Below are positions 247 to 14,779 of a stretch of DNA of 64,000 bases, piece by piece; within the stretch, counting starts at the first letter, position 1, and each line of letters starts with the position of its first letter. Position numbers and translations under genes: made by a program. Below the pieces are notes generated by a model. The model saw nothing but the letters and a program-made list of their open reading frames with translations. It ran no database searches and was not told where the DNA came from. The DNA is from Lysobacteraceae bacterium (GTDB lineage: Bacteria > Pseudomonadota > Gammaproteobacteria > Xanthomonadales > Xanthomonadaceae), in contig JAEUPQ010000034.1 of the NCBI GenBank assembly GCA_016789405.1, positions 1 through 64,000 of the forward strand. Reading direction: 5' to 3'.

Positions 247-1914
247 TCATTGCCGGCCCACGCGCGACGCGGCCCACGCCGCCAGCTTTTCCCGGCCGAT
301 CTTCGCGTTGTGGCGGATGTCGACCGGGAATGCCGCAGGGTGATGCAGGAAGGCATCGACCTTCGCCGTGTGCACGAATCCATCGCCGAGGTGGCGCAGT
401 TCCTCTTCGATGCGCGGCCATTCCTGTGCGGACACGCCCGCACGCAGCTCCACGCACAGCACCGCCCGCTGCGCACCGAAGGCGCCAACGCCGACCAGCG
501 CGGTGCGCCGAACCTCGCGATGGGTGTTGAACACCGGTTCGACCTGCTCGGTGCACAGCGTCGTCGTCGCGGTCACCACGCGCTGCGATTTCCGGCCGCA
601 GAACCACAGTCGGCCCTCGGCATCGAAATAACCGAGGTCGCCCATGCGATGCACGATGCGTTCGCCGCCATCGGCCAGCGTCTCGCGGATCTTCGCCAGG
701 CGGGTCTGCGCGTCGCGATTGAAGTACAGGTCGGTGGCGCTGGGGCCCGCGACCGTGATCTCGCCGACGATGCCGCCCTTCACAACCAGATCGTCGGACC
801 AGCCTTCAATCGCGTCGTCGGTGACGCGGATCAGGCGCACCTCGTTCGGCGGCACCGCGCGGCCGACGCAGGTGCCTGCGCCCTGCTCGGTGCGCTCGCG
901 CAGCGTGAGCAGCTCGCGTCCCTCGATGATCGCCACCGGCAGGCATTCGGTCGCACCGTAGGGCGTCCAGAAGCGTCCGTCCGGTGGCAACAACGACTGG
1001 ATCTTCGCGACGACGTCCGCCGGTACCGGCGCACCGGCCGACATCACCGTCTTGACCGTCTTCAGCGATTCGCCGTGATCGGCGAGCACGCGCATCAGGG
1101 CCGGCGAGCCGAACAACTGGTCCACGCCGAAACGTTCGATCGCCGCGTGCAGCTTGCGCGGGTTCGCTTTCGCCGGCCGCGTCGGGTCCATGTCGGGGAT
1201 GATCGACGTCGTGCCCAATGCCGGATCGAACAGCGCGAACGGCGGAAACGTCGGCAGGTTCACGCCGCCCGGCGCGATGCCGAAGGCCGCGCCCATCATT
1301 TCGATCTGCGCCACGAAATGGCGGTGCCGGTACACCACGCCCTTGGGCACGCCTGTCGAGCCGCTGGTGAACAGGATCGCGGCCACGTCGTCGGGCCGGG
1401 TATCGGCAAGCTGTGGCCCGGCGCCGGCGCCACTGGCTTCGACGTCCGCCAGCGTTGCATCCGCGAGGATCGCCCGCGCACCGGTGGTCACGCGAATGCG
1501 CGCGCTGCGCGCCCAGCGCAGCAGCACCCGCGCGAACTGCGCCAGCGGAATGCCGATGAAGGCCTCGGGTTTCGCCTCGTCCAGGCATTGCCGCAGCGCA
1601 CGCTTGTCGATGCCCGGATCCACCAGCACCGGCACGGCACCGGCCTTGAACAGGGCGAACATCAGCAGGAAGAACTCCGGCGTCGGCCGCACCATCACCA
1701 CCGTGCGCGTGCCCCGCGCGATGCCGCGCCTTGCCAGCCCGGCGGCGATCGCATCGCTGCGCGCGTCGAGCTGGGCATAGGTCAGGGCCACGTCGTAGCG
1801 GCCGGACGACCCGGGGCAGCGCATCGCCACCTGGTCGGGGCGCTCGCGGGCCAGGCGCGGCAGGCTGGCGGCGATGTTGCAGGCGGCGGCGGGCGTGTCG
1901 GACGATGGATTCAT
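247..1914 (-). CDS. oleC: AMP-dependent synthetase/ligase, OleC-like (olefin beta-lactone synthetase family)
   Basis: 555-aa ORF. Adenylate-forming enzyme motifs: TSGSTGVPKG (P-loop), YGATE, and a GDLGYxDxxGxLxxxGRK hinge. It lies next to an OleB-like hydrolase, with an OleA-like thiolase 11 kb upstream. High third-position GC. Confidence 0.75.
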   Translation of the reverse strand: MNPSSDTPAAACNIAASLPRLARERPDQVAMRCPGSSGRYDVALTYAQLDARSDAIAAGLARRGIARGTRTVVMVRPTPEFFLLMFALFKAGAVPVLVDPGIDKRALRQCLDEAKPEAFIGIPLAQFARVLLRWARSARIRVTTGARAILADATLADVEASGAGAGPQLADTRPDDVAAILFTSGSTGVPKGVVYRHRHFVAQIEMMGAAFGIAPGGVNLPTFPPFALFDPALGTTSIIPDMDPTRPAKANPRKLHAAIERFGVDQLFGSPALMRVLADHGESLKTVKTVMSAGAPVPADVVAKIQSLLPPDGRFWTPYGATECLPVAIIEGRELLTLRERTEQGAGTCVGRAVPPNEVRLIRVTDDAIEGWSDDLVVKGGIVGEITVAGPSATDLYFNRDAQTRLAKIRETLADGGERIVHRMGDLGYFDAEGRLWFCGRKSQRVVTATTTLCTEQVEPVFNTHREVRRTALVGVGAFGAQRAVLCVELRAGVSAQEWPRIEEELRHLGDGFVHTAKVDAFLHHPAAFPVDIRHNAKIGREKLAAWAASRVGRQ

Positions 1915-2018
1915 GCCTGCATTCTCTCGCGACCGGCGCGGTGCTTGCCAATCACGGCCGGAAGCGCAGAATCCCCGACCCGTCCCTGTCCTCGTGTCAT
2001 CGCCCCGGTTCGCCGCGC

Positions 2019-2378
2019 ATGTCGCATCCCTGCCTGTCCTGCGGCGCCTGCTGCGCCGCCTACCGCGTCAGTTTCCACTGGTCGGAGGCCGACCCGGCGC
2101 TGGGCGGCGTCGTGCCCGTGGAACTGACCGAAACCCTCGGCGCGCACCAGCGCTGCATGCGCGGCACATGGTCGGACCAGCCGCATTGCGTCGCACTGGC
2201 AGGCACGGTCGGCGAGGCCGCGCACTGCACCATCTACGAAGCGCGACCGTCGCCGTGCCGCGAACTGCGGATGTCGTGGGAAGACGGCTCGCCCAACCCG
2301 CAGTGCGACCGCGCACGCGCGCGCTACGGATTGGCGCCACTCACGCCGGAAGAGGCCGCGCGGGCGCGGGACCACTGA
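2019..2378 (+). CDS. YkgJ-family (UPF0153) cysteine-cluster protein, putative Fe-S/Zn-binding
   Basis: 119 aa starting MSHPCLSCGACCAAYRV, i.e. the CxxCGxCC signature of the YkgJ/UPF0153 family. The ORF track shows a longer 1731..2378 ORF, but the family-typical N-terminus begins at the ATG near 2019. It lies opposite-strand between the oleC- and oleB-like genes. Confidence 0.55.
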   Translation: MSHPCLSCGACCAAYRVSFHWSEADPALGGVVPVELTETLGAHQRCMRGTWSDQPHCVALAGTVGEAAHCTIYEARPSPCRELRMSWEDGSPNPQCDRARARYGLAPLTPEEAARARDH

Positions 2379-2412
2379 CTCGCCATCGACGCCACTCGGG
2401 GCGTCTGCGCCA

Positions 2413-3309
2413 TCAGACCGGATTGGCGTCCAGGAAGCGACGGATCGCCGGCACCAGCACCTCGTGCTTGTCTTCCAGCACGTAGTGGTGCGCATCGTGG
2501 AAGGCATGCACCTCGGCATTCGGCAGCGCGCGCTGGAAGCCTTCGAGGAAGTGCTGGTCGAACACGAAGTCCTGGAGCCCCCAGGCGATGAACGCCGGGC
2601 GGTCCGCATACGTCGGCAGGCGCTGTTCCGATGCCTTCAGCAATGCCCAGGCGGGATCGCCCTCGGCGAGCGGGATGTCCTGGACGAAACGCAGCGTGGA
2701 AATGCGGTTCGCCCACGAATCGTAGGGCGCGACGTAGCCGCGATAGACGTCCTTCGACAGCTTGCGCGACACGCAGTCGCGCGCGGTGCCGGCGGCGAAG
2801 GCATTGAACGCGCGGATCAGGAGCGCACCCAGCATCGTGTTGCGGCACAGGTTCAACTGCCACGGCATCGGCTTGGCCGCAGGCAGCGGGAACGCGGCGG
2901 TGTTGGTGATCACCAGTCGGCGCACCTGCGCCTGGTGCGACAGCGCCCAGCCGAAGCCGATCATGCCGCCCCAGTCGTGCACCGCCAGCGTCACCGGCCC
3001 GTCGATGCCCAGGTGTTCGAGCAGCCGCGACACGTCGTCGACGCGCGACTGCAGGGTGTAGGTGTAGCGGTCGTCGCCGGGTTTGTCCGACAAGCCCATG
3101 CCGACGTGGTCCGGCACGATGCAGCGGTACCGATCGCTCAAGCCCGACACCAGGTGCCGCCACAGGAAGCTCCACGAGGGATTGCCATGCAGCATGACGA
3201 CCACCTCGCCATCGCGCGGCCCCTCGTCGAGGTACGACATCGCGATGCCGGGGCGAACCTCGAAGCGGTTCGGTGTGAAGGGGTAATCCGGGAAAGTCTG
3301 CGGGGTCAT
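2413..3309 (-). CDS. oleB: alpha/beta-hydrolase, haloalkane-dehalogenase-like (OleB-like)
   Basis: The ORF track gives 518 aa, but the first 220 codons are an Arg/Pro-rich run typical of GC artefact. The real protein starts MTPQTFPDYPF at 3309, giving 298 aa. It has the HGNPSWSF (HGxP) oxyanion motif, a VHDWGG nucleophile elbow (Asp nucleophile, dehalogenase-type) and a C-terminal His. It is adjacent to oleC. Confidence 0.75.
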   Translation of the reverse strand: MTPQTFPDYPFTPNRFEVRPGIAMSYLDEGPRDGEVVVMLHGNPSWSFLWRHLVSGLSDRYRCIVPDHVGMGLSDKPGDDRYTYTLQSRVDDVSRLLEHLGIDGPVTLAVHDWGGMIGFGWALSHQAQVRRLVITNTAAFPLPAAKPMPWQLNLCRNTMLGALLIRAFNAFAAGTARDCVSRKLSKDVYRGYVAPYDSWANRISTLRFVQDIPLAEGDPAWALLKASEQRLPTYADRPAFIAWGLQDFVFDQHFLEGFQRALPNAEVHAFHDAHHYVLEDKHEVLVPAIRRFLDANPV

Positions 3310-3364: not shown

Positions 3365-3434
3365 AAGAATAAGGCCTGTGCCGGTTTTTGGCACCGAAAC
3401 CGCACCGAAAAGCGCCGAAAACGCGACTTCGGCC
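3365..3434 (-). repeat. three degenerate 11-bp tandem repeats GCGTTTTCGGC / GCTTTTCGGT / GCGGTTTCGGT (minus-strand reading) followed by a short GTGCC-N7-GGCAC hairpin; possible weak terminator or RNA element after the PLD gene
   Basis: Plus strand reads ...gcctgtgccggtttttggcaccgaaaccgcaccgaaaagcgccgaaaacgcg... The TTTTCGG-type unit occurs three times at about 11-bp period. The stem is 5 bp only, so this is weak as a terminator. Coordinates approximate. Confidence 0.3.
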
Positions 3435-4145
3435 TCAGCGATCTCCGCCGTATGCGGCCCACAGGCGCTCGAAGCGCTCGGCGAAGGCCCGGACCAGGCG
3501 GACGTCGTCGGTGACGATCAGGTTTTCCTCGTTGCCTTCGGTGGCGCTGCGGGTCCAGTTGAAGCTGCCGGTGGCCAGGCGGCGTCCGTCGAACAGGGCG
3601 AACTTGTGGTGCATGTGGAAGGCGCTGGCGTCCAGCCTCACGGGCAAGCCGTGGTCGCGCAGGCGCAGCATGTCGCTGCCGGCATCGTGGACCTTGTGGT
3701 CGTCGCCGATGATGCGTACCGCGACGCCGCGCGCGTGGGCGTCGGTGAGCGCCGAGGTGAGCCGGTCGTCGGAGACGGTATAGACGCAGACATCGATCGC
3801 GCGCTTCGCGCCGAGGCACAGCTCGCGCAGCTTGCGCAGGCAGTCCTCGCCCGGCGAGAACCAGGCATTGGCATCCACCGGCGGCGGATCGGCGACTGCA
3901 TCGAGGGTGCGCACGACCTGCTCCAGCCATCGCAGCAGGTCCATCGGTGCGAACGCCGGATCCGACCACCGCTCGCGCACCAGGTCGAAGGCACGATTGC
4001 GCAGATACCGGACGCGGTCGCGCGCGAGCCCGGCGCCGAGCTGTCGCAGCTCGAGTTTCTCGTCATCGTCCAGCACCGCGTCCGCCGCGCTTTCGCGCAG
4101 CAGGCGATCCAGTTCGGCGAAATCGATCCGGGCCGCGTCGCTCAC
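3435..4145 (-). CDS. phospholipase D-family protein with a single HKD motif (Nuc-like endonuclease or single-HKD phospholipase / cardiolipin-synthase-like), with an N-terminal ~100-aa helical extension
   Basis: 236 aa. It contains HMHHKFALFDGRRLATGSFNWT, i.e. HxK(x)4D(x)6GSxN, the canonical HKD catalytic motif, present once. Single-HKD proteins act as dimers. The GTG start overlaps the stop of the upstream giant gene (GTGA), implying translational coupling. Confidence 0.75.
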   Translation of the reverse strand: MSDAARIDFAELDRLLRESAADAVLDDDEKLELRQLGAGLARDRVRYLRNRAFDLVRERWSDPAFAPMDLLRWLEQVVRTLDAVADPPPVDANAWFSPGEDCLRKLRELCLGAKRAIDVCVYTVSDDRLTSALTDAHARGVAVRIIGDDHKVHDAGSDMLRLRDHGLPVRLDASAFHMHHKFALFDGRRLATGSFNWTRSATEGNEENLIVTDDVRLVRAFAERFERLWAAYGGDR

Positions 4146-7100
4146 CGCGGCGTCCGTCCGAGCAGGCGGTCCGAGAATTCCTCCAGCGCCTTCTGCAACT
4201 GCACTTCGCGTTCGCCCGGCGGCACCAGGGCCTCTTCGCCCGGGGCCCGACGACGACGCGTGCCTGCGGCCGGTGCCGCCTTCATCGCTTCGGTCTGCGC
4301 GGTGATCCGTTCGGCGATCAGCGCCATGACCTGCTGCAACTGCACCTGCTGTTCGGCATGCCGCTCATACCACTCCGGCATGGGCGGCTGCGCAGCCGGC
4401 GGCGCGGCTTCGGGTGAGACCACGCGCGGTGCGGCCATCGCTTCGGACAACCGCTCCAGCGATGCGAGGATCTGCGCCCACGGTGCCGGCTCGGGAGGTG
4501 CAGCAGGCGTTGCGGGCGCACGTTCGCCCAGCTTCTCGAGACCGCGTACGCCTTCGACCAGGTCGGCCAGCTGCGCGACCACGCGCGGGCCGACCTCGGC
4601 ATCGTCGGACCCCATCGCCTTGTTGCGCAGGAAGTCGCGCTTGATCTGCGCCCAGCGCGCAGCCTGGGTTTCGCTCATCACTTCGCGCAGTTCCGCGAGC
4701 TTGAGCAGGTTCTCCTCGGCGCCGGTGGTGAGCAGCTGCGATTCGCCCTGGTAGTGGTCCGCGATGAGCTGCTGCAACTCCGCGGCATTCATCACCGGCG
4801 AGATCTTCTCGGCGAGCTTGTTCATGTTGCGGTAGCTGCCCTGCAGCTTGAACGACGGCTCGGTGCGGTACTTGTCGGCCTGCGCGGCGCTGGCGATGTA
4901 CTGCTGGTTGACGCGGTAGACCACTTCGCGCACCTGCATGAGACGCTCCAGTGTCGCGGTGATCTCGTTGATCTCGGCCGCGCTGTAGGCATGGCTGAGG
5001 CTGTTCGCCGAGAAAGGCTTGCCCGCGATCTTGTCGACCAGCTTGTAGAGATCGCCGAGGTCGCGCGTGGCCAGCGGCGCCAGCACGGCATTGGAGGTCA
5101 GGCAGTTCTCGACATAGCTCAGCTTGAAGGCCTCTTCCATGCCGCCCAGCACGTCGCCGAGGTTGTAGATGTCGGCACGGTTGGCCAGCATGTCCGGGAT
5201 CTTGAAGACCTCGCCGGACTCGGTGTACGGGTTGCCGGCCATGACCACGCAGAATTTCTTGCCGCGCAGGTCGTAGGTGCGGGTGCGTCCCTGCCACACG
5301 CCTTCGATGCGGCGGGTGCCGTCGCACAGCGAGATGAACTTCTGCAGGAACTCCGGGTGCGTGTGCTGGATGTCGTCGACGTACAGCATCACGTTGTTGC
5401 CCATCTCCAGCGCGAGGTTGAGCTTTTCAAGCTCCTGTCGCGCGGCGGCATCGGGTGCCTGTGCCGGGTCGAGCGAACGCACTTCGTGGCCCAGCGCCGG
5501 GCCATTGATCTTCATGAAGATCAGGCCGAGCCGGTGCGCAACGTACTCCATCAGCGTGGTCTTGCCGTAGCCCGGTGGCGAGATCAGCATCAGCATGCCC
5601 ATCAGGTCGCTGCGCTTGCTCTCGCCGACCGTGCCCATCTGCTTGGCCAGGTTGTCGCCGATCACGCCCAGGTAGACATCGTTGATGAGCTTGTTGCGCA
5701 CGAACGAACTCAGCGGACGCGCCTTGAATTCCGACAGGCGCAACGCCTCGCGCTCGCGCGCGACCAGCGCCTGGCGCAACGCATGGCAGCGCCGGAACTT
5801 CGGCAGGAAATCCGAACGATGCCGGCGCAACCGCTCGGCGATATCGTCGACGCCCAGATGGATCGTGCCCGCCGCGATGCGCGGATGCTCGCCGAGCAGG
5901 CCGGCGACGCTCGCGCGCAGGTCGACCTCGACCACCTTCGACAAGGCCTCATCGCCGAGCAGCAGCAGGGCCACCGCTTCCGGCAGATAGTCGATGAGCG
6001 ACGCCTGCGCGGGATCCTGCGCCAGCGCATCGAACCAGTGCCGCGCCAGGTGCCAGCGCGCGGCAGGCTGCTCGCGCAGCGCGTTGAGGGATGCCTGCAG
6101 GTCGTCCCAGAGTCGTTCGGCGACCAGGCGCTGCCGCAAGGCCTCGTGCAGCTGTCGAGCATACTTGCTGAATGCGAAGGACTGGTGCTGCGTGGCGATC
6201 ACGGCGATCAGGTAGTCGGCAGCCGGCGCGCACAGCGCTTCGTCCACGGGCAAACCCTGCGCCTGTGCTTCGGCGTGCATCGCGAGGGCGATCTCGTCGC
6301 GCAGGCTGACCAGTCCGCCACGGTGCGAAAACACGCGATCGATGCTCGTGGCATTGCGCGCACGGTCCGCCCAGAGCCCGGCGTCCTCGCGATCACGGAC
6401 GCTCGACCAGAACAGGCTCGCCCACGCGCGCGCCGCTGGTGCATGCACCAGCAAGCCGGCGCTGTCGCGCAGCGGCAGCAGCGCCGCCAGCAGCAGGGCG
6501 GCATCGTGGTCGTGGATGCCTTTCTCGTACCCGTCGCGATAGCGCGACGCGGAGAATTCGCGGATCGTCTTCGACAGCAGCTCCGGCTGCTTCGCCTGCT
6601 GGCGCAGCAGGTCGAGACTCAGTCCTTCGCGGCCGGCCTCGGCCGCATCGATGACTTCGCCCAGCAGGTACTCGGCGCGATAGAGCTGCGGCGACTCCGA
6701 CTCCAGGCCCAGCGACCAGAAGTCGCGCAGCGCGTCGAGTTCCGCGTCGCGCACCGGCGAGAAGAACTCGGTACCGGTCAGGTGCAGGGCAAGGCCATCC
6801 TCGCGCGGCAGCACCGTGAGATCGAGCTCCTGGGTGTTGACGCTGAAGCGGTGTCGAGGGCCGAGCTTGATGACGTTGCCGCCTTCCTCGAACAGCTCGG
6901 TGCGGTCGCGCAACGCGCGCACGGCCTGGTCGCGCACGCCCTTGAGGCGCGCGTCGATGTCGTCGGCCTTCACCGAATCCTTGAGCGCGCGCAGGCGATC
7001 GGCCAGGTCGCGCAGCTTCAGGATCAGCGCATCGCCGGCGAAGAAGGCATTGAGTTCGTCCATGCCCGAGAGCCGCGCAGTGCGCCTGCCGAGTCCGTCG

Positions 7101-9481
7101 AGGATGCGCGATGCCGCGTCGGCCAGCGACTGGGTCTTGCGCTGGCGCTCGTCGAGCAGCGATTGCTTGTGCGTCTCGAAGGTGTCGAGCAGTTCGTCGC
7201 GCTTGGCGACGATGTCGCCGAGGAACTGCTCGTGCTCGCCGAACTGGCTTTCGAGTTCCTCCAGCTGGATCATCAGCCGCGACAGTTCCTGGTCGCAGCG
7301 CTCCGGGTCCCGCGAAGAAGCCAGCGCACTGGCGATGCTCTGTCCGAACAGCGTGAACTGCGCGCCGAACTGGGCCACGGCTTCGCTCGATCCCAGAGCC
7401 TTGCGGCGCTGGTCCGCGCGCGCCTTGGCCTGGTTGAGCTTCGCGTAGATCTCGGAGATGGTCTCGACGATCCGCGTGCGCCGGGTCGCGTCGTCCACCT
7501 TCAACGTCGCCATCAACTCAGACAGCACGTCCAGGTCCGTGGACAGCGCCTGCATTCCCTGCAGCGGCGTCTGCAGCGCAGTCACGCTGGCCGCCTTCTG
7601 CGCTTCGCCATCAAGCGACTGCAGGCGTTCCGAGAACGGATGCAGCGCCTTGTCTCCCGCGAGGAATCCACTCGTGGCCTCGCCGACCTGCGTCTGCGCG
7701 GCGAGCAACTCCGCCTCCATCGCGTCGACGGCGGCCACGTCGACATAGCGCTGCTCGCGAAGCGTCAGCAGGCGCCCGCGCTGCGCAGTGATCGCGTTGA
7801 GTGCATCGACGCAATCCTGGACCTTTTCCCAGCTGTCCGGATGCAAGCCGCCCAGCAGCGTCTTCTGTCGCTCGGACGCGTCGCGCATCGCGTCCGCGGA
7901 CTGGCGACGGATGCTCTCGACCTTTTCGTACTCGTCGAGCACGGCCTCGCTGCTGGCGACGATCTCGCGCAGCAGCGGCGCCAATCCATCGCAATGCCGG
8001 TCCTCGATCCAGTGGTACTGGTCGAACAGGCGACGTGTGGTCTGGGTGAGCAACTGGTAGCGCTGCGCCGACACGTCGGCGGTGTCGATCTCGCGCGCGA
8101 GACTCAGCAGGTCGGAGATGCCGCGCACCAGTTCAGGGTTGCCGATGCGCCCCATGAACGTATTCGCCGCGGGCGCCTTCGCCACATGGTCGTCGAAGGC
8201 GAACGGCGTCTGCCACACCTGCATCGGATGGATCTTCGTCGGCTCGCTGCTCTGGGCCGTGAAGATCACCATGCGCCCGTCTTCCAGCCGCGCATAGCCA
8301 TGACCGATGATCGGCGGCTGCATGCCCCGCTGGATCGTGTTGTAGACGAACAGCGCGACGCGGCCATCCTGCGGCTCGTAGAACAGGTACAGCACGTCCT
8401 CGCCATTGGGCGAGCGGATCTTGCGCTTGAAGCGCATGCCTTCGACGGCCTGGTCGAACGTGCGGGTCTCGCCATTCTGCAGCATGTAGCCACCGGGAAA
8501 GACGATGCCGTGGTCGTCCGGCAACTGCACGCAGGCCTGGCCGATGGCATCGATGCGATGCACCTTGCCTGAAATCGTGTTGTAGGCCAGGTGGCGCCAC
8601 TGCTGTTCCCGGTACGGCAGGACCTTCAGCAGCACGAGACTGCCGACCCGCGCGAAGTCGACCTGCGCGTCGTCGAGCGACTGGGTCTTGTCCTCCACCG
8701 GCTCGCGGTAGATGCCCAGTCCATCCTCGGTGTTGTTCTCGACCTTGATCGTCAGGTCGCCATTGACCGTCTCGACGAACAAGGTATCGAGGATGTTGAG
8801 GTGCGGGTGCCGGCCGTTGACGGCCATGTCGCGCGTCGCGCGCATCCATTCGAAGTCGTAGGGCGCCGGCAGGGCGATGTCGCGCTCACCCCGGTTGTCG
8901 ATGTAGCGCACGCCGCTGCCGTCGACATGCCAGCGGAAGACGCGCATGTCCTCGATGCGCTCGCCGATCTGGAACGCCGCCAGCAACTTGTCGTCGCGCA
9001 CCACCAGCTGCAGGAGCTTCGTGTCCTTGTAGTAGGCGTGCAGCTCGGTGAAGTCCTTCACGAACGCGGCTTCGCCGAGGAAACTCGCCGACGCGGCGAC
9101 GGGCGTCACGTCGTAGCCATCGGCGCCTTCGACCAGACGGTACAGCGAGAACACGTCCTCGATCCGGGTCTCCTTCTTGAGCCCGATGAAGACGTTGTAG
9201 CCGAAGAGCAGGCAATCGCCGACCTGCACGATGTCGCGTGCGACGCAGTTGTGCTCGGTGCGGATGCGCAGGCGCCCGACGACCTCCATCCGGCTGCTGC
9301 CGAACTCCTGCAGCCGCTGCGTGTTCAGGCCCTCGGCGAGGACACGAAGTTGCGCGCCCTGGTCGCCGAGACGCTTGCGCAGCACGTCATAGGCGCCGCC
9401 TTCGGCGACGGCCTTGTCGACTTGCGACACAGCGAGAGCTGCACCGTCCGTATTCGCACTTGTCGTGGTGTTTTCCGCCAT
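4142..9481 (-). CDS. giant (1779 aa) cytoplasmic protein: N-terminal beta-rich region (~450 aa), ~600 aa of predicted coiled coil, a helical region, one AAA+ ATPase module (Walker A at about residue 1305), and a Pro/Ala/Gln-rich coiled-coil tail; family not recognised
   Basis: ATG start with GGAAG upstream. AAA+ motifs appear in canonical order and spacing: Walker A ISPPGYGKTT; Walker B VMLYVDDIQ about 55 aa later; sensor-1 and arginine finger CVVMAGNPYTESGEVFKIPDMLANRADIY about 45 aa after that. Heptad-like charged repeats (for example ELLAAQTQVGEATS..., LEELESQFGEHEQFLGDIVAKRDELLDTFETHKQSLLDERQRK). No TM segments seen. High third-position GC throughout. Confidence 0.8.
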   Translation of the reverse strand: MAENTTTSANTDGAALAVSQVDKAVAEGGAYDVLRKRLGDQGAQLRVLAEGLNTQRLQEFGSSRMEVVGRLRIRTEHNCVARDIVQVGDCLLFGYNVFIGLKKETRIEDVFSLYRLVEGADGYDVTPVAASASFLGEAAFVKDFTELHAYYKDTKLLQLVVRDDKLLAAFQIGERIEDMRVFRWHVDGSGVRYIDNRGERDIALPAPYDFEWMRATRDMAVNGRHPHLNILDTLFVETVNGDLTIKVENNTEDGLGIYREPVEDKTQSLDDAQVDFARVGSLVLLKVLPYREQQWRHLAYNTISGKVHRIDAIGQACVQLPDDHGIVFPGGYMLQNGETRTFDQAVEGMRFKRKIRSPNGEDVLYLFYEPQDGRVALFVYNTIQRGMQPPIIGHGYARLEDGRMVIFTAQSSEPTKIHPMQVWQTPFAFDDHVAKAPAANTFMGRIGNPELVRGISDLLSLAREIDTADVSAQRYQLLTQTTRRLFDQYHWIEDRHCDGLAPLLREIVASSEAVLDEYEKVESIRRQSADAMRDASERQKTLLGGLHPDSWEKVQDCVDALNAITAQRGRLLTLREQRYVDVAAVDAMEAELLAAQTQVGEATSGFLAGDKALHPFSERLQSLDGEAQKAASVTALQTPLQGMQALSTDLDVLSELMATLKVDDATRRTRIVETISEIYAKLNQAKARADQRRKALGSSEAVAQFGAQFTLFGQSIASALASSRDPERCDQELSRLMIQLEELESQFGEHEQFLGDIVAKRDELLDTFETHKQSLLDERQRKTQSLADAASRILDGLGRRTARLSGMDELNAFFAGDALILKLRDLADRLRALKDSVKADDIDARLKGVRDQAVRALRDRTELFEEGGNVIKLGPRHRFSVNTQELDLTVLPREDGLALHLTGTEFFSPVRDAELDALRDFWSLGLESESPQLYRAEYLLGEVIDAAEAGREGLSLDLLRQQAKQPELLSKTIREFSASRYRDGYEKGIHDHDAALLLAALLPLRDSAGLLVHAPAARAWASLFWSSVRDREDAGLWADRARNATSIDRVFSHRGGLVSLRDEIALAMHAEAQAQGLPVDEALCAPAADYLIAVIATQHQSFAFSKYARQLHEALRQRLVAERLWDDLQASLNALREQPAARWHLARHWFDALAQDPAQASLIDYLPEAVALLLLGDEALSKVVEVDLRASVAGLLGEHPRIAAGTIHLGVDDIAERLRRHRSDFLPKFRRCHALRQALVAREREALRLSEFKARPLSSFVRNKLINDVYLGVIGDNLAKQMGTVGESKRSDLMGMLMLISPPGYGKTTLMEYVAHRLGLIFMKINGPALGHEVRSLDPAQAPDAAARQELEKLNLALEMGNNVMLYVDDIQHTHPEFLQKFISLCDGTRRIEGVWQGRTRTYDLRGKKFCVVMAGNPYTESGEVFKIPDMLANRADIYNLGDVLGGMEEAFKLSYVENCLTSNAVLAPLATRDLGDLYKLVDKIAGKPFSANSLSHAYSAAEINEITATLERLMQVREVVYRVNQQYIASAAQADKYRTEPSFKLQGSYRNMNKLAEKISPVMNAAELQQLIADHYQGESQLLTTGAEENLLKLAELREVMSETQAARWAQIKRDFLRNKAMGSDDAEVGPRVVAQLADLVEGVRGLEKLGERAPATPAAPPEPAPWAQILASLERLSEAMAAPRVVSPEAAPPAAQPPMPEWYERHAEQQVQLQQVMALIAERITAQTEAMKAAPAAGTRRRRAPGEEALVPPGEREVQLQKALEEFSDRLLGRTPR
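5130..5615 (-). other. AAA+ ATPase module inside the giant protein (Walker A GYGKTT at about 5548-5580)
   Basis: By-eye motif mapping: PPGYGKTT ... LYVDDIQ ... VMAGNPYT ... DMLANRADIY. Coordinates approximate (plus or minus a few nt). Confidence 0.6.
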
Positions 9482-9699: not shown

Positions 9700-10287
9700 T
9701 CACGCACCCGTGCTGACCGCTGCCATTTTGTCGCATGGCCCGGACACACCCTGCTTCCGCCTGATCTCATCCGGCCCCATGGCCGCTGCCGTGCCTGATT
9801 GGTGGGATGCTGGAACCCATTCACGCACCTTCTGCTCTTTCAAGACAACGGCATCGACGTACGTGACGGCTTTCGATTTCGTGCAGATGATCACGAGTGC
9901 GAATCGCCCGCCCCCCATGTCCAGCGCACTGGCGTCCATGGCTTCTGCAGATGCGACCTTGCGGACGTCGACGGAGCCCATCGCATCCTTCCTGGCAGCA
10001 AGGCGTGCTTCGAAGTCCCGGTACTCGTTCGCGTCTCGATAGGCTTTCAGCATCCCGGTCCAGAGCTGCTCGTACATGGCCCGGTCGGCCATTTCCACAT
10101 AGCGCATCGCCGCGAGTGTCGCTCCTTCCCGCTCGACTGCTCTCAGTGCGACCACCGTTCCTTCGAAGTCAAGCGATTCCTCCTGCCCTGCATGGACTTC
10201 GCCTGCAAGGACTTCGCCTGCATCGCCGCATCCCGAGACCAGCATCGTCGCTCCCAGCACCATCGCCATCATTGCGGTACGAATCAT
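9700..10287 (-). CDS. putative lipoprotein of unknown function
   Basis: The ORF track gives 9700..10317 from a TTG. The in-frame ATG at 10287 (MIRTAMMAMVLGATMLVSGCGDAG) gives a typical lipoprotein signal peptide with lipobox LVSGC and a GAGGAA RBS about 10 nt upstream. The C-terminal part is low-complexity, so the true stop and extent are uncertain. Confidence 0.45.
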   Translation of the reverse strand: MIRTAMMAMVLGATMLVSGCGDAGEVLAGEVHAGQEESLDFEGTVVALRAVEREGATLAAMRYVEMADRAMYEQLWTGMLKAYRDANEYRDFEARLAARKDAMGSVDVRKVASAEAMDASALDMGGGRFALVIICTKSKAVTYVDAVVLKEQKVREWVPASHQSGTAAAMGPDEIRRKQGVSGPCDKMAAVSTGA

Positions 10288-10415: not shown

Positions 10416-12404
10416 TCAAGCTTCTTCCGGTTCCACGGCCTTCTTCCCACCCACCTGCATCGACAGCAGCTTCTGCAGCACTTCCTGCACGATCGGACTC
10501 TTGCCGGCGACGCCTTCCACCGCCTTGCCGACCGACAGCGCCTTGGCGAACGAGTCGAAGAACGCACCTTCGCCGCCGACGATGTCGATGTTCGCCTTGG
10601 CCAGCGCGGTGGACAGCACCTCGGCCTGCTCGCGCGCGATCTCCTTGTTCGCTTCGATCGAGGCCAGCGCCTGCTCGAAGTTCTTTTCCAGCTGCATGCG
10701 GAACTCCTCGTGCGCACGCGCCTGGTCGCTGAGCGAGCCCAGCGCGCCGAACTTCTCGGTCAGACCCTCGGCCTCCGAGCGGTACTTCTGGCGCATCACT
10801 TCGGCCTCGCTGAAGCCGACGTCCTTGGTGACCTTCGCCTGCGCCTCGCCCAGCTGCGTTTCGCCGCGCGCCTTCGCTGCCAGGTTCTCTTCGAGTACCT
10901 TCGCGTCGGCGAGGCCCTTGTCCTGCGTGCCGCGCGCTTCCGCGGCCAGGGTTTCGGCGACCACGCGCGCCTTGGCCAGGCCTTCCTTCTCGAGCGCCGC
11001 CGCGGTGATCTCGCGCACGCGCGCATCGGCCAGACCGGGCGCCGCGCGCTCGGCTTCGATACCTTCCGCCATGCGCTTCTTCGCCTCGGCCTGCTTCGCA
11101 GCCGCTTCCAGTTCGGCCTGCGCGATCACGGTCAGCTCGACCGCCTTGTGCTTCGATGCCTGCTCGTCGGCTTCGGCCTGCTTGACCTGGCGCACCAGCT
11201 CTTCTTCGGCCTTGGCCTGCGCGGCGAGGATCGTCACCTGCTTCTTGCGATCGGCCTCGGACACTTCACGCACTTCCTTGATGCGCTCCTGCTCCAGCGC
11301 CACGGTCTTGTCGACGGCGACGCGCTCGCGGACCACGTTGGCGATGTCCTTGCGCTGGATCTCCAGCGCCTTTTCCTTCTCGATCTTCTGCAGCTCGACC
11401 TCGCGCTCGCGAGACACGATCTCGAGTTCCTTGGCGCGCGTGACCTTCTCGACCTCGATCACGACGGCACGCTGGCGATTCTGCTCGGCCACTTCGACTT
11501 CGCGCAGCCTGTTCTGGTCGCGGATGTCGAGCTGCTCCTGGGTCGCCAGGCGCGCCTGCTCGGCCTTGAGGCGCTCTTCTTCCTGCACCTTCAGCGTTTC
11601 GGCTTCTTCGCGCGCACGAATCGTTGCGATCTCGCGCTTCTGGCGCGCCTCGGCATCGGCCTGCTGGCGCTCCAGCGCGAGCATCGCCTCGCGCGTCTCG
11701 ACGTTCTTCTTGGTGATCGCAAGTTCCTCGTTGCGCGCCAGCTCGTTGGTGATGACGTTCTGCGCGGCGGTGAGCTCGGTGATCTTGCGGATGCCTTCGG
11801 CGTCGAGGATGTTGCTCGGGTCGAGCGAGTTCTTCGGCGTCTGCTCCAGGTAGTCGATCGCGACGTCTTCCAGCACGTAGCCGTTGAGGTCGTTGCCGAT
11901 GACCTGGATGATGCGGTCGCGGAACTCCTGGCGGTTCTCGAACAGCTTCACGAAGTCGATCTGCTTGCCGACCGTCTTCAGCGCTTCGGAGAACTTCGCG
12001 TTGAACAGCTCGTTGACCGCGACCTTGTCGGACGCGCGGTCGACGCCGATCGCCTTGGCCACCTTCAGCACGTCCTGCGCGGTCTCGTTGACGCGCAGGT
12101 AGAACGCGACGGTGATGTCGGCACGCATGTTGTCCTGGCAGATCAGTCCGTCCTTGCCGCGGCGATCCACTTCGAGGGTGATCAGCGAGATCCGCATGAA
12201 CTCCTTCTTGTAGATCACCGGATAGACCAGCGCACCAGTGAAATGCACCTTCGGCGTCGACGACATGTCGTTGACGATCAGCGCCGTGCCCTGCGGCACC
12301 TTGATGTAGAAGGCCTTGAAGAGGCCGACGATGCCGAGCAGCATCACGATGATGGCGCCCGTGATTGTTAGGAGCATCATGACGTTCGGACCCAGGTCGT
12401 TCAT
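10416..12404 (-). CDS. flotillin-like SPFH/band-7 protein (YqiK family)
   Basis: 662 aa from ATG at 12404, with a strong AGGAGGAA RBS 7 nt upstream. It has an N-terminal TM helix, then an SPFH domain (KVPQGTALIVNDMSS...ITLEVDRRGKDGLICQDNMRADITVAFYLRV), then a very long EA/K-rich coiled-coil/flotillin region. The extra N-terminal codons in the track ORF (GTG at 12455) are rejected. Confidence 0.85.
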   Translation of the reverse strand: MNDLGPNVMMLLTITGAIIVMLLGIVGLFKAFYIKVPQGTALIVNDMSSTPKVHFTGALVYPVIYKKEFMRISLITLEVDRRGKDGLICQDNMRADITVAFYLRVNETAQDVLKVAKAIGVDRASDKVAVNELFNAKFSEALKTVGKQIDFVKLFENRQEFRDRIIQVIGNDLNGYVLEDVAIDYLEQTPKNSLDPSNILDAEGIRKITELTAAQNVITNELARNEELAITKKNVETREAMLALERQQADAEARQKREIATIRAREEAETLKVQEEERLKAEQARLATQEQLDIRDQNRLREVEVAEQNRQRAVVIEVEKVTRAKELEIVSREREVELQKIEKEKALEIQRKDIANVVRERVAVDKTVALEQERIKEVREVSEADRKKQVTILAAQAKAEEELVRQVKQAEADEQASKHKAVELTVIAQAELEAAAKQAEAKKRMAEGIEAERAAPGLADARVREITAAALEKEGLAKARVVAETLAAEARGTQDKGLADAKVLEENLAAKARGETQLGEAQAKVTKDVGFSEAEVMRQKYRSEAEGLTEKFGALGSLSDQARAHEEFRMQLEKNFEQALASIEANKEIAREQAEVLSTALAKANIDIVGGEGAFFDSFAKALSVGKAVEGVAGKSPIVQEVLQKLLSMQVGGKKAVEPEEA

Positions 12405-12480: not shown

Positions 12481-13176
12481 TCATATTTCTTCGAATTCCG
12501 TCGTCGACGTCACCCGATAGGCGTTCTGTTCATCCAGGTATTCGATCAGCACGACGCGATCGCCCCTCACGAAACGGCCTGGTACGTCGCAACGCACCTG
12601 CAGGATCAATCCGGCGCCGCCGTCATCGACCCAGGCGGTACCGTGCGTGTGCGTGATCTCCGGGCTGCGCACCTCGGCATAGCGGCCGAGCAACGGGCGC
12701 TGCGTGACCGGTTCGTAGCGGCGCAGCAGCCTGCGCACCGGGGCCAGCACCATGCGCCCGACCGGGATCGACAACAGCAGGCCACCGAACATCGTCGCGA
12801 TCGCGGCCAGCGTGGCGCCGATGCCTTCGGGCATCGCACTGATCACATGCAGGTCGACCATGAAGCAGAACGACCAGCCGACGATGGCGATGATCGTGAA
12901 GACCACCATCACCGGTACGCCGTGCAGACCGAACTTCATCAGGAAGCCGCCGAAGCTGCCATGGTCGCCGTGCGCATCGTGCGAACCGTGCGCGCCATGC
13001 GCTCCGTGGGCACCGTGCATGGCATCGGCGCCGATGTCGTCCGGCAGCAGGCCATCCAGCGCGTCGAGCTCGAGGATGCCCAGCGCCGACAGCAGCCAGT
13101 GCACGGTCACCACCAGCAGCAGCACGCTGTACACGACGGTCGGGAACGATGTCACGACCTTCAGGAACACTTCCAT
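12481..13176 (-). CDS. YqiJ/NfeD-like inner-membrane protein (partner of flotillin), with a His-Gly repeat loop
   Basis: 231 aa. Two TM segments. A C-terminal OB-fold-like region (GRYAEVRSPEITHTHGTAWVDDGGAGLILQVRCD...GDRVVLIEY) as in NfeD/YqiJ proteins. GGAGG RBS upstream. Contains HGAHGAHGAHGSHDAHGDHG. Confidence 0.7.
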   Translation of the reverse strand: MEVFLKVVTSFPTVVYSVLLLVVTVHWLLSALGILELDALDGLLPDDIGADAMHGAHGAHGAHGSHDAHGDHGSFGGFLMKFGLHGVPVMVVFTIIAIVGWSFCFMVDLHVISAMPEGIGATLAAIATMFGGLLLSIPVGRMVLAPVRRLLRRYEPVTQRPLLGRYAEVRSPEITHTHGTAWVDDGGAGLILQVRCDVPGRFVRGDRVVLIEYLDEQNAYRVTSTTEFEEI

Positions 13177-13249: not shown

Positions 13250-14011
13250 TCATTCGTCCTGCCGATCCTTCAGGCGCGACAGCACGGCCTCGGTGCGATC
13301 CTCTTCCGCGATGATGCCGGCGCGTCGCAGCCGTGCTTCGAGCGATGCGTCGAGTTCGTCGCCCGCCTCGACCTTCAGCGCATCCAGTGTCACGCCACGT
13401 TCGGCCTGCCTGCGCTTGATGCGCTCGAGCGAATCCAGCGCGGTCCGCACGCGACCATCCGAATCGCGACGCCGCTGCGCCATCGCGACCTGCGCGCGCT
13501 GCACGGTTTCCGTCGCGCGCACGGTGTCGACCTGCTGCTTGAGTCGACCGATGTTCGCCTCGAAGTTCGCCGCGACCTTGCGCAGCTGCGCGATGCCGTC
13601 GGTGAATTCCCGCACCTGTGCGGCGTGGCCGTCGCGCTCGATCTCCAGCAGGGCGATGTGTCCCGCGACGTCGCGGGCCAGCGCGTCCTCGCCGGACTTC
13701 AGCGCCTTCAGCGCATAGCCCTCGTATTCCTCCAGCCTGGCGTTCGCCGAGGCGAGGCGCTCCTGCGCGACCTTGCAGCGCGCCATGGTCTCGGCCAGCG
13801 TCGTGCGCACGCGGCGCAGTTCGGCGTCGTTGTCGCGGATCTCCTCGTCGAGGATGCGCAGCGCCTGGCTGTCGGCAATGACATCGCCCAGCCCGTCGAC
13901 ACCGCCACGCACCGCCGCGACCAGGCGGCGCCACAGCGCGGACGGCTCCGGCACGTCCGTCGTTTCGATTTGCGGCTTCGACTTGCGTCCGCCCTGCGCC
14001 TTCGTGCTCAT
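13250..14011 (-). CDS. PspA/IM30/Vipp1-family protein (ESCRT-III-like; YjfJ-type paralog)
   Basis: The track ORF is 462 aa, but the real start is MSTKAQGGRKS at 14011, giving 253 aa. The ATG overlaps the yjfI-like stop (ATGA). The protein is all-helical with charged heptads, for example MARCKVAQERLASANARLEEYEGYALKALKSGEDALARDVAGHIALLEIERDGHAAQ. Confidence 0.85.
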   Translation of the reverse strand: MSTKAQGGRKSKPQIETTDVPEPSALWRRLVAAVRGGVDGLGDVIADSQALRILDEEIRDNDAELRRVRTTLAETMARCKVAQERLASANARLEEYEGYALKALKSGEDALARDVAGHIALLEIERDGHAAQVREFTDGIAQLRKVAANFEANIGRLKQQVDTVRATETVQRAQVAMAQRRRDSDGRVRTALDSLERIKRRQAERGVTLDALKVEAGDELDASLEARLRRAGIIAEEDRTEAVLSRLKDRQDE

Positions 14012-14448
14012 GCGGCCTCCCGCAGGTGCCATTCGTAGGCTTCGGTGGCGCGGATGACGTTGTCGGCGAGCGTTTCCATCTCGAACAGCACGTCGGCGAG
14101 CGAGGACGCCGAGCTGAGCGCGCCGAACATGATGTAGACCGCTTCGCCGTCGATCGTCTCGATGCCGAGCGTCGACAGCGGGAACAACTTGTGGGTCCGC
14201 AGCAGCTCTTCGTTGAAACCGGCGGCATCGCGGACCTGGGACACAGGCCAGAGCATCGCTTCGACGACGATCTGCCGACCGACCACGGCCATGTACAGCG
14301 GCAGGTCGCCGTAATCGTGCATGGTCAGGTACAGGCCGGGCTCGGCGCCGTCGATCAGCTCGGCCGTGATCACGCCAAGGCGCGCGCCATCGCTGGCGAC
14401 CAGGGCGTCGTGCAGGGCCTTCGCGGTCCACAGGGTCTTGTCGGGCAT
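14008..14448 (-). CDS. YjfI-like protein (DUF2170), conserved partner of PspA-family yjfJ
   Basis: 146 aa from MPDKTLW, preceded by a strong GGAAGGAGAG RBS. LLRTHKLFPLSTLGIETIDGEAVYIMFGALSSAS matches E. coli YjfI LLQTHKLVPLSTVGINTLNGEEYYIAFGALSSQS. The track's extension to 14670 starts at a TTG that is actually a TTGACA -35-like hexamer. An in-frame upstream ATG at about 14634 cannot be fully excluded. Confidence 0.7.
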   Translation of the reverse strand: MPDKTLWTAKALHDALVASDGARLGVITAELIDGAEPGLYLTMHDYGDLPLYMAVVGRQIVVEAMLWPVSQVRDAAGFNEELLRTHKLFPLSTLGIETIDGEAVYIMFGALSSASSLADVLFEMETLADNVIRATEAYEWHLREAA

Positions 14449-14639
14449 GGCGAGCTCTCCTTCCGTCGGCGCCGCCGGCGAGGGCCCGCCTCGCGGCAGG
14501 CGCATCCGCCGCTCCACGGCCGCCAGTTCGTCGGCGTATTCGGGCAACACCCACAACTCCTTCTTCACCAGGCCCTGCTCGCGCAGGCGGTCGCGATGTC
14601 GTCGCTGGTAGAAGGCGGAGCTGCGGCGTTCCATGCATC

Positions 14640-14700
14640 GATCATGAATGTCACATGTGAGGACTGTCAATCCATCACATGTAACGTCCGGACGAACGGC
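14640..14700 (-). promoter_or_regulatory. putative promoter/operator of the yjfI-pspA-flotillin block: TTGACA -35-like hexamer flanked by two copies of TCACATGT(G/A)A (the first a perfect 10-bp palindrome)
   Basis: Minus-strand reading: ttacatgtgatggaTTGACAgtccTCACATGTGAcattcatgatc. A repeated palindromic element overlapping -35/-10 suggests a repressor operator. Coordinates approximate. Confidence 0.35.
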
Positions 14701-14717
14701 AACGCCGACCCTCAGGC

Positions 14718-14750
14718 AAAGAAAAACCCCGGCCGGGGCCGGGGTTTCGG
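14718..14750 (-). terminator. rho-independent terminator downstream of the oleA-like gene (GC hairpin CCCCGGCC..GGCCGGGG followed by TTTTTCTTTG on the minus strand)
   Basis: Plus strand reads caaagaaaaaccccggccggggccggggtttcgg. A perfect 8-bp GC stem, then a T-run in the gene's direction. It separates oleA from the downstream co-directional block. Confidence 0.5.
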
Positions 14751-14779
14751 GTGCCGCGAGAACGCATGAGGCCGGGGAA

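Follow-up and report, generated by a model that had tools for sequence, protein, structure and literature searches.

The closest described relatives of the locus studied here are the bacABCDEF operon of Pseudomonas aeruginosa and a class of operons defined computationally. In P. aeruginosa, reverse transcription PCR showed that bacA to bacF are co-transcribed, and the proteins BacB to BacF were found to be 6- to 13-fold more abundant in a bacA transposon mutant (PMC10948618). In this operon, bacE corresponds to PA14_16190 (PA3728) and bacF to PA14_16200, and for BacE itself only the co-transcription and co-regulation were reported, with no mention of an ATPase (PMC10948618). PA14_16160, the orthologue of BacC, has been called a short NfeD protein, and PA14_16180 was described as the SPFH protein PaFlo3 (PMC13086221). 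The operon class and its "novel AAA+ ATPase" were already described by Ravi et al. in 2024, with an inferred function (PMC11237479). Here, we analysed a 64,000-nucleotide stretch of DNA from a Lysobacteraceae bacterium (assembly GCA_016789405.1, contig JAEUPQ010000034.1, positions 1 to 64,000; hereafter the window), which carries a bacE-like gene for an AAA+ protein of 1779 residues. A preliminary description of this DNA had presented the protein as unclassified and belonging to no known family.

We have very little doubt that the window protein is an orthologue of P. aeruginosa BacE and a member of a bac-type operon. The two proteins share their Pfam architecture and are 69% identical over 1692 aligned residues, or 95% of the length, and all six bac genes are present in the window in the order and strand of P. 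aeruginosa. The statement that no family could be assigned had to be withdrawn, as the protein has a named orthologue and matches DUF3686 with 668.7 bits against a cut-off of 25 (E = 4.1e-201, model positions 2-448 of 448) and DUF7902 with 91.9 bits against a cut-off of 26. A confident profile match to a characterised family had been named as the finding that would remove the novelty of the protein; the profile match is there, the biochemical characterisation of the family is not. The window protein thus adds a member to the catalogued DUF3686-DUF7902-AAA+ family, and its novelty is lost.

Searched against 1.84 billion representatives, the N-terminal domain matched 754 clusters (50% identity) with E <= 1e-3, of which 555 reached E <= 1e-10. 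The P. aeruginosa homologue (P0051) stands for 3222 near-identical P. aeruginosa sequences. Complete family members are 1550-2036 residues long, every one of them with DUF3686 at its N-terminus, and distant members carry an identical precomputed Pfam set. Searches of NCBIfam and PADLOC with BacE gave nothing beyond noise. Across sources the homologues are named "DNA repair ATPase", "AAA family ATPase" or "MoxR-like ATPase"; thousands bear the first of these names, and the Pfam description of DUF3686 reads "ATPase involved in DNA repair". In our literature searches, DUF3686 and PF12458 were mentioned in no paper. PA3728 is often mutated in isolates from cystic fibrosis (PMC8190622), but a gene of 5.2 kb offers a large target for mutation, and this was not taken as functional evidence. 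We also observed two variants of 1040-1048 residues, P0310 (locus L085, 7001-10123) and P0311, which have DUF3686 and DUF7902 without the AAA+ module; P0310 lies in an unrelated context of Por_Secre_tail proteins, an integrase and Rhs/Tc-toxin genes, with no NfeD/SPFH pair.

Gene neighbourhoods were compared at 82 loci, namely the window, the P. aeruginosa locus and 80 contigs, one genome per species, from Gamma- and Betaproteobacteria, Myxococcota, a Zetaproteobacteria metagenome-assembled genome (MAG) and one MAG labelled Clostridia (51-94% identity in the N-terminal domain). Partners were searched with hidden Markov models built from the window proteins. A flotillin-like gene was found at 79 of these loci and an NfeD-like gene at 77, in nearly every case immediately ahead of bacE and in the same orientation; the few exceptions were mostly contigs that end close to the gene. 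The corresponding counts were 43 for PspA, 41 for the DUF2170 protein BacA and 23 for a phospholipase D (PLD)-like protein. The window fits this pattern, with bacC and bacD upstream on the same strand and one inserted gene before bacE. Similar arrangements were present at three distant loci: CesT_Tir, PspA, DUF4177, BacC, BacD and BacE in Sphingobacterium (Bacteroidota, L083); two PspA genes, YqiJ_N, BacD and BacE in a Planctomycetota MAG; and BacC, BacD, BacE and TelA on an unplaced metagenomic contig. Together, the partner counts and these loci establish an obligate module of an NfeD-like protein, an SPFH protein and BacE, to which PspA with a CesT/Tir-type partner, and PLD, are recurrent add-ons. 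The triad takes on different membrane-stress accessories by phylum.

This is the operon type of Ravi et al., including the optional HKD phospholipase D of some Proteobacteria, and the Sphingobacterium locus repeats their Bacteroidota arrangement (PMC11237479). Their account is computational and brief and notes "abbreviated operons" qualitatively, whereas our counts show that the SPFH and NfeD-like partners, not PspA, are constant. As a further observation, TelA (toxic anion resistance) follows the triad, or a gene with a TPM_phosphatase domain flanks it, at L082 (12001-13221) and L083 (11874-13391); TPM_phosphatase has also been tied to PspA operons (PMC11237479).

These neighbours bear on the name under which thousands of homologues are filed. 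According to that name, BacE would be a DNA repair ATPase akin to SMC or Rad50, and the PLD neighbour might be a Nuc-like nuclease. Besides the Pfam and NCBI names, the sub-threshold match of BacF to NucT (E = 1.6e-13, 50.6 bits against a cut-off of 297) and a weak P-loop similarity of BacE to RuvB speak for this view. However, the likeness to RuvB is confined to about 40 residues at the P-loop and scores 19 bits against a cut-off of 282. BacE has a lone AAA+ module instead of a split ABC-type head, it matches no ABC or SMC family, and it showed no domain for DNA binding or nuclease activity; the SMC-like PADLOC profile LmuB reached E = 0.042, in the helical region. The invariant neighbours are membrane proteins, while the PLD-like gene occurs at only 23 of the 82 loci. 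In P. aeruginosa the operon responds to phage and to membrane-active peptides, with no link to DNA damage reported there, and the name has no backing in the literature that we found. A repair function thus appears extremely improbable, and the label "DNA repair ATPase" is very probably wrong. A role in membrane stress or membrane organisation, rather than in DNA repair, is likely.

The phage response raises another explanation, namely that the operon encodes an anti-phage defence or abortive-infection system. BacE would be its motor or sensor and the HKD-PLD protein its effector, while the membrane proteins would provide the place where it acts. Defence systems often pair a large ATPase with a PLD-type effector, and BacF weakly matches DrmC of DISARM (E = 1.3e-8). 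In addition, PA3728-PA3732 were jointly induced on infection by virulent phages (PMC12041424). Phage induction is, however, also shown by the PspA-type envelope stress response. In PADLOC-DB 2.0 the best match of BacE was IetA (E = 0.005, over 29 P-loop residues), BacA, BacC and BacD matched nothing, the match of BacB was a marginal coiled-coil one (LmuB, E = 0.0026), and the likeness of BacF to DrmC is that of PLD proteins in general. Defence islands are patchy, but this locus is conserved and keeps its gene order from one genus or phylum to another, among housekeeping-like neighbours, and three quarters of the loci dispense with the PLD-like gene. We therefore consider a defence function very unlikely.

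In the explanation that we favour, BacE would be a soluble mechanoenzyme of the AAA+ type, docking through its beta-propeller-like domain and helical arm on a membrane-anchored assembly of BacD (flotillin-like) and BacC (NfeD-like) and, where PspA is present, perhaps on PspA polymers as well. The ATPase ring would then assemble, remodel or dismantle these oligomeric membrane scaffolds during envelope or membrane stress. A scaffold ATPase acting on PspA or flotillin polymers, one of the possibilities raised in the preliminary description, is the reading best backed by gene context and is also the published inference (PMC11237479). Several reports are consistent with it: PA3728-PA3732 were elevated in another stress proteome (PMC13637947), PA3731, the PspA homologue of the operon, was induced by membrane-active staphylococcal peptides (bioRxiv 10.1101/2023.01.29.526047), and an SPFH protein of Bacillus subtilis recruits PspA to the membrane (PMC8581546). 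Taken as a whole, together with the family identity, this remodelling or assembly explanation is rather probable. The narrower proposal that BacE uses ATP specifically to remodel SPFH and/or PspA assemblies is possible, if somewhat short of an even chance. More tentative still, and in our opinion doubtful in its entirety, is a scheme in which the BacE family, as a dedicated AAA+ machine kept from Proteobacteria to Bacteroidota and Planctomycetota, would power flotillin/NfeD microdomain scaffolds. It would hold the SPFH assembly by its propeller-tipped arm and spend ATP on opening, turning over or rebuilding it, PspA and a PLD-type lipid enzyme would be recruited upon membrane damage, and BacA, as a DNA-binding autorepressor, would act as a switch on the TTACATGTAA pair upstream of the operon.

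The sequence of the ATPase module is consistent with such an activity. The motifs ISPPGYGKTT (at residue 1300), LYVDDIQ (1366), VMAGNPYT (1413) and DMLANRADIY (1430) were all found where they had been placed, and they supply Walker A (S1301-T1309), Walker B (D1369/D1370), the sensor-1 asparagine (N1417) and an arginine (R1435). In an alignment of 70 full-length family members, which extends down to 29% identity in the N-terminal domain, these elements and a lid motif, QGSYR (1547-1551), are at least 90% conserved, and in a 14-sequence alignment of the AAA region they are invariant. QGSYR was absent from the earlier motif list; its R1551 is likely the sensor-2 arginine. A sequence scan of BacE found one P-loop and no second, as expected for a single AAA+ module, and the protein is indeed about four times the usual size of an AAA+ enzyme. 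This conservation is most simply read as that of an active ATPase under selection, which is plausible.

To which AAA+ clade the module belongs is less clear. The preliminary description had likened its layout to the classic clade, MoxR or AAA_5; each of these options gained some support, and none was singled out. The Pfam families AAA_5 and AAA both match BacE residues 1297-1424 above cut-off, though weakly. The AAA_5 match, with 26.3-30.2 bits against a cut-off of 22, covers model positions 2-127 of 139 and runs through sensor 1. All 14 diverse family members compared match AAA_5, and all 14 also match AAA (PF00004) with similar E-values, so that the AAA_5 match is not discriminating. When a profile of the AAA module was compared with the PDB, classical AAA proteins came out best (Rix7 with E = 4.6e-7, then NVL, VAT and p97), in matches that span only profile positions 19-90, from helix 0 to strand 2. 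The classical AAA clade is marked by two arginines (RPGRFD-type) in the second region of homology and by the lack of a sensor-2 arginine. BacE has one conserved arginine after sensor 1 (R1435, in LANRAD) and the conserved R1551 at the sensor-2 place, and neither hallmark of the classical clade is apparent in its sequence. The segment DGTRRIEG...FCVVMAGNP-x5-G-x4-IP-x3-L-x-NR, together with the conserved lid arginine, is one that we take to be more MoxR/AAA_5-like than classical.

Structural marks of the MoxR/AAA_5 group are a helix-2 insert, a pre-sensor-1 hairpin and a pre-sensor-2 insert. In the AlphaFold2 model of residues 1040-1660, helix 3 and strand 4 are separated by a beta-hairpin (1391-1404), and the conserved arginine and QGSYR by 116 residues; the predicted local distance difference test score (pLDDT) there is low, at 37-63. 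Foldseek comparison of this model returned AAA+ proteins exclusively (MCM, RuvB, NorQ, Cdc48, ClpB and Lon), with a best E-value of about 1e-2. An assignment to a clade from the model was set aside, given this generic mix and a predicted TM-score (pTM) of 0.35 for the AAA core.

Two further alternatives were considered. In the first, BacE would be a PspA-specific disassembly ATPase resembling Vps4, and the flotillin and NfeD proteins would serve as a membrane platform only. PspA is one of the ESCRT-III superfamily proteins, and those of eukaryotes and archaea depend on the AAA ATPase Vps4 (PMC8281802, PMC11237479). PspA genes recur beside the triad in Proteobacteria, Bacteroidota and Planctomycetota, and the N-terminal half of the AAA module matches classical AAA proteins, with Rix7 at the top. 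However, about half of the loci lack an adjacent PspA gene while SPFH and NfeD-like genes are nearly constant, no MIT domain was detected with Pfam, and the sensor-1-to-arginine segment and QGSYR are presumably unlike the classical clade consensus. The missing PspA neighbours weaken this alternative, which we judge unlikely, although a PspA encoded elsewhere could still be a client.

In the second alternative, BacE would be a MoxR-type assembly chaperone or a largely structural tether. Instead of taking polymers apart, it would help a membrane complex to form or to reach its place, for instance through the loading of BacC/BacD or the PLD enzyme at certain lipid domains. AAA_5 is matched above its cut-off over 126 of 139 model positions, some sources name the homologues "MoxR-like ATPase", NorQ (of the MoxR class) is among the Foldseek matches, and the large non-ATPase part of the protein, with its propeller, arm and GIHDHDA middle domain, would suit a scaffold. 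The residues NP-x5-G-x4-(I/L)P-x3-L-x-NR after sensor 1 and the GxSxR-like QGSYR also recall what we take to be the MoxR/AAA_5 consensus. The usual companion of MoxR proteins is a VWA-domain protein, and no match to one was found among the scanned proteins of the window operon or the genes of the P. aeruginosa locus. In addition, the PDB profile comparison favours classical AAA proteins over the first 70 residues, so the clade signal is ambiguous, and sequence does not distinguish assembly from disassembly. Such a chaperone or tether role is, in our estimate, improbable.

Returning to the proposal that BacE remodels flotillin/NfeD and PspA scaffolds, several points weigh against it. Gene neighbourhood indicates functional linkage and is silent on the direction or nature of the action. 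The AAA+ part was modelled at a pLDDT of 70 and the low pTM given above, the segment after strand beta-2 reads ALGHEV and is without an aromatic pore-loop motif, and with mixed clade signals a threading mechanism is not to be assumed. BacE showed no MIT-like domain, nor any other domain known to bind PspA or SPFH proteins. Deletion of paFlo3 (bacD) in strain PA14 reduced biofilm by about 20% and gave no strong phenotype (PMC13086221). Finally, literature searches for DUF3686, PF12458, BacE and the combination of SPFH, NfeD and AAA+ found no functional study of the ATPase, and no work on ATPase activity, oligomeric state, partners or a bacE phenotype for members of the family.

Among better-known machines, BacE may be compared with several. 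Like Vps4 and ESCRT-III, it pairs an AAA ATPase gene with a neighbouring gene for an ESCRT-III-superfamily polymer and is a plausible functional analogue; it differs from Vps4 in having no MIT domain, in being about four times larger, in its sensor-2-like arginine and AAA_5-like sensor-1/arginine segment, and in that PspA is not an obligate partner. A likeness to FtsH-HflK/C may lie in the tie between an AAA+ ATPase and an SPFH membrane scaffold (PMC13220708), but BacE has neither a transmembrane segment nor a protease domain, and BacD is a single flotillin-like SPFH protein that goes with a short NfeD in place of the HflK/HflC pair. RavA may be similar in being an ATPase with a long arm that bears a distal binding domain. 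Dynein and midasin are chains of six modules, in contrast to the single module of BacE.

Outside the ATPase module, the domain anatomy of BacE (Table 1) agrees in part with what had been described. The N-terminal region is beta-rich, as claimed: an AlphaFold2 model of residues 1-520, built from a 58-sequence alignment (pLDDT 81, pTM 0.77), consists of a long helix (30-60), about 28 strands (66-425) and further helices (442-519) that pack back on helix 30-60 as a helical bundle. Foldseek comparison of this model with the PDB gave 174 matches at E <= 1e-3, and the top 50 listed were mostly beta-propellers (Elp1, DCAF1 WDR, CyRPA, Sec12, KLHDC3, LRRK2 WD40 and prolyl oligopeptidase). Because the TM-scores of these propeller-dominated matches were just 0.07-0.40, we call the predicted domain beta-propeller-like only, a fold short of firmly established; the published description also gives a beta-propeller N-terminal domain (PMC11237479).

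The middle of BacE had been described as a coiled coil of about 600 residues. It is helical and charged, as stated, but the length was overstated: residues 450-865 are interrupted by glycine or proline every 30-60 residues, residues 442-519 belong to the fold-back bundle, residues 869-905 appear to be beta, and residues 910-1250 form a separate helical region. In view of the breaks and the bundle, a single unbroken coiled coil was not adopted. Within the last region, residues 1040-1240 were modelled as a helical domain, with a pLDDT of 83-96 over model residues 1-140. The motif GYEKGIHDHDA, at least 90% conserved among the 70 family members, is the most conserved feature of BacE beyond the propeller-like and AAA+ domains; it is matched by no family and might be a metal-binding or catalytic signature. 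The C-terminal tail (1651-1779) is proline-rich, as had been noted (13% proline, 19% alanine), and shows conservation of 0.04-0.14 and occupancy of 0.14-0.48 in the family alignment; it is longer than, and different from, the tail of P. aeruginosa BacE. No segment of transmembrane-grade hydrophobicity was found in BacE, the best 19-residue window having a Kyte-Doolittle mean of 1.73 and containing arginine and aspartate, in line with the original claim that the protein has no transmembrane helix. PDB sequence searches with the single protein, a full-length profile and an AAA-only profile gave matches centred on the P-loop only; for the N-terminal and middle domains they revealed no relative of known structure.

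The window has a G+C content of 62-70%, at which long shadow open reading frames (ORFs) are abundant, so that ORF length alone is no proof of a gene. The bacE-like ORF starts with ATG and runs for 1779 codons without interruption, exactly as first described, its G+C content at codon positions 1, 2 and 3 is 0.70, 0.42 and 0.88, and its closest database proteins match over the full length with up to 91% identity. These data show that the gene is real and is not a pseudogene; the frameshifts or stops that were to be looked for are not there. Antisense to it lies an ORF of 1272 codons (4754-8572, forward strand), which failed the gene filter for codon-position G+C and is a typical high-GC shadow ORF rather than a gene.

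Table 1. The bac-type operon of the window, the domains of its BacE protein and putative control sites.
Feature	Position	Strand	Description	Basis
Operon upstream boundary	14725..14740	-	terminator-like hairpin after FabH-like gene	consensus scan
Promoter/operator region	14641..14684	-	repeat pair and sigma-70-like site; bacA ATG at 14634	
bacA-like gene	14008..14634	-	208 aa; N-terminal extension of about 45 aa and DUF2170 (YjfI, CesT/Tir-like)	Pfam, E = 2.6e-50
bacB-like gene	13250..14011	-	PspA/IM30 family	Pfam PspA_IM30, E = 5.5e-39
bacC-like gene	12481..13176	-	231 aa; three transmembrane-like segments and soluble C-terminal domain, short NfeD/YqiJ-like	hydropathy, homologues
bacD-like gene	10416..12404	-	about 662 aa; N-terminal transmembrane helix, divergent SPFH/band-7, long charged helical region	homologues
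DUF4019 gene	9700..10287	-	lipoprotein-like, between bacD and bacE	Pfam, 29.4 bits against 26.5; lipobox-like N-terminus
bacE-like gene	4142..9481	-	1779 aa; DUF3686, DUF7902 and AAA+	
DUF3686 domain of BacE	8012..9349	-	aa 45-490; beta-propeller-like aa 66-425 within helical bundle (helix 30-60 and helices 442-519)	Pfam
DUF7902 of BacE	7400..7651	-	aa 611-694; helical middle	Pfam, E = 2.9e-26
Conserved motif of BacE	6500..6529	-	Y985-x2-G-x-H-D-x-D-A994 (GYEKGIHDHDA)	70-member alignment
AAA+ module of BacE	4562..5629	-	aa 1285-1640	Pfam AAA_5 and AAA, family-wide motifs
C-terminal tail of BacE	4145..4531	-	aa 1651-1779; variable, Pro/Ala-rich	composition, family alignment
bacF-like gene	3435..4145	-	236 aa; single-HKD phospholipase-D superfamily	Pfam PLDc_2, E = 5.6e-29
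Operon downstream boundary	3414..3433	-	terminator-like hairpin directly after bacF	consensus scan

The other proteins of the operon are related to their P. aeruginosa counterparts to differing degrees (Table 1). BacA is 54% identical, its extension included, and scores 315 bits, against a cut-off of 300, with the NCBIfam equivalog NF050185, "biofilm formation regulator BacA"; BacB is 53% identical to the PA3731-type BacB, BacC 39%, BacD (PaFlo3) 79% and BacF 57%. The start codon of bacB overlaps the bacA stop (ATGA), as does that of bacF the bacE stop (GTGA), and the translated bacF contains the motif HxK-x4-D-x6-GSxN. Pfam and PDB searches with the window BacC and BacD gave no match, even with a 30-sequence profile. 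The SPFH identity of BacD is therefore shown transitively, through the literature and through its homologues, 3 of 30 of which match Pfam Band_7 when aligned (best E = 5e-11). Similarly, the BacC homologue of the Planctomycetota locus carries Pfam YqiJ_N. We also noted in BacC a histidine-rich loop (HGAHGAHGAHGSHDAHGDHG; residues 53-72, window 12960-13020, reverse strand) between transmembrane segments 1 and 2, which occurs in 7 of 77 homologues, mostly the closest relatives of the window, and weakly matches an NCBIfam His-Xaa-Ser repeat.

The window differs from the P. aeruginosa locus in the DUF4019 gene between bacD and bacE. This gene is missing from all 81 other loci, including L002, which is 94% identical, and its G+C content at third codon positions is 0.69, compared with 0.85-0.89 for the bac genes. 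These properties make it look recently acquired, and it stands outside the conserved system. A sigma-70-like site was seen near it, at 10296-10268, and the consensus scan found no terminator-like site between bacD and bacE. Terminator-like sites are no commoner in this region than expected by chance, and the two hairpins that bound the operon are positional hints only. Beyond these hairpins lie genes for an AMP-binding enzyme and an alpha/beta-hydrolase on the downstream side (247-3250, reverse strand) and for a FabH-like ketoacyl synthase III on the upstream side (14780-15802, reverse strand). These were not kept beside bacE at the P. aeruginosa locus, the one locus compared, and are probably unrelated lipid-metabolism genes.

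Upstream of bacA we found an operator-like pair, sometimes a triple, of palindromic repeats, T(T/C)ACATGT(G/A)A, about 22 bp apart. In the window the repeats are TTACATGTGA (14684-14675) and TCACATGTGA (14660-14651), spaced by N14. They bracket a TTGACA -35 element (14670-14665), and a CATGAT -10 element follows at 14646-14641 with a spacing of 18. A scan of 1.57 Mb of related loci for the strict pattern ACATGT-N14-18-ACATGT gave 25 matches, all of them directly upstream of bacA and distributed over 23 loci, from Lysobacteraceae to Pseudomonas (at about 3675-3722 of the P. aeruginosa locus, L001) and marine Gammaproteobacteria. The N-terminal extension of BacA (window 14500-14634, reverse strand) has the form M-x-R-x-SSA-x-YQR-x2-R-x-RLREQGLVKKE-x-W-x-LPE, matches a MazE-like Pfam family weakly (E = 0.017) and was seen in 31 of the 41 BacA proteins compared. 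The strict operator accompanies 23 of the 31 BacA proteins with the extension (by eye, the other eight have variant spacing or half-sites) and none of the 10 without it. Since the operator tracks the extension, these patterns suggest that BacA is a DNA-binding autorepressor acting on a putative TTACATGTAA-type operator pair, consistent with the published derepression in the bacA mutant. A sigma-54 (-24/-12) promoter had been proposed upstream of P. aeruginosa bacA (PMC10948618). In contrast, a search of 14635-14780 for TGGCAC-N5-TTGCW with up to two mismatches gave no match, and the elements described above suggest a sigma-70-like, nearly leaderless bacA promoter as an alternative.

The main value of these results is corrective: the protein had been classified already, and the name "DNA repair ATPase" is very probably wrong. 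The analysis adds the partner counts over 82 loci together with the three distant loci, and the operator pair that tracks the BacA extension; specific to the window are the DUF4019 insertion and the different BacE tail. The BacE family is still a good target for experiments: it is among the largest conserved cytoplasmic proteins of Pseudomonas, the relatives of Lysobacter and Stenotrophomonas, Proteus/Providencia, Psychrobacter, Myxococcota, Bacteroidota and Planctomycetota. For bacterial flotillins, and for PspA outside the PspF paradigm, no linked component that consumes energy is obvious other than BacE. The family is thus a concrete candidate for the disassembly of bacterial PspA/SPFH assemblies without Vps4, and the relation between the operator and BacA offers a model of regulation that can be tested directly, in an operon with links to biofilm and virulence phenotypes of P. 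aeruginosa.

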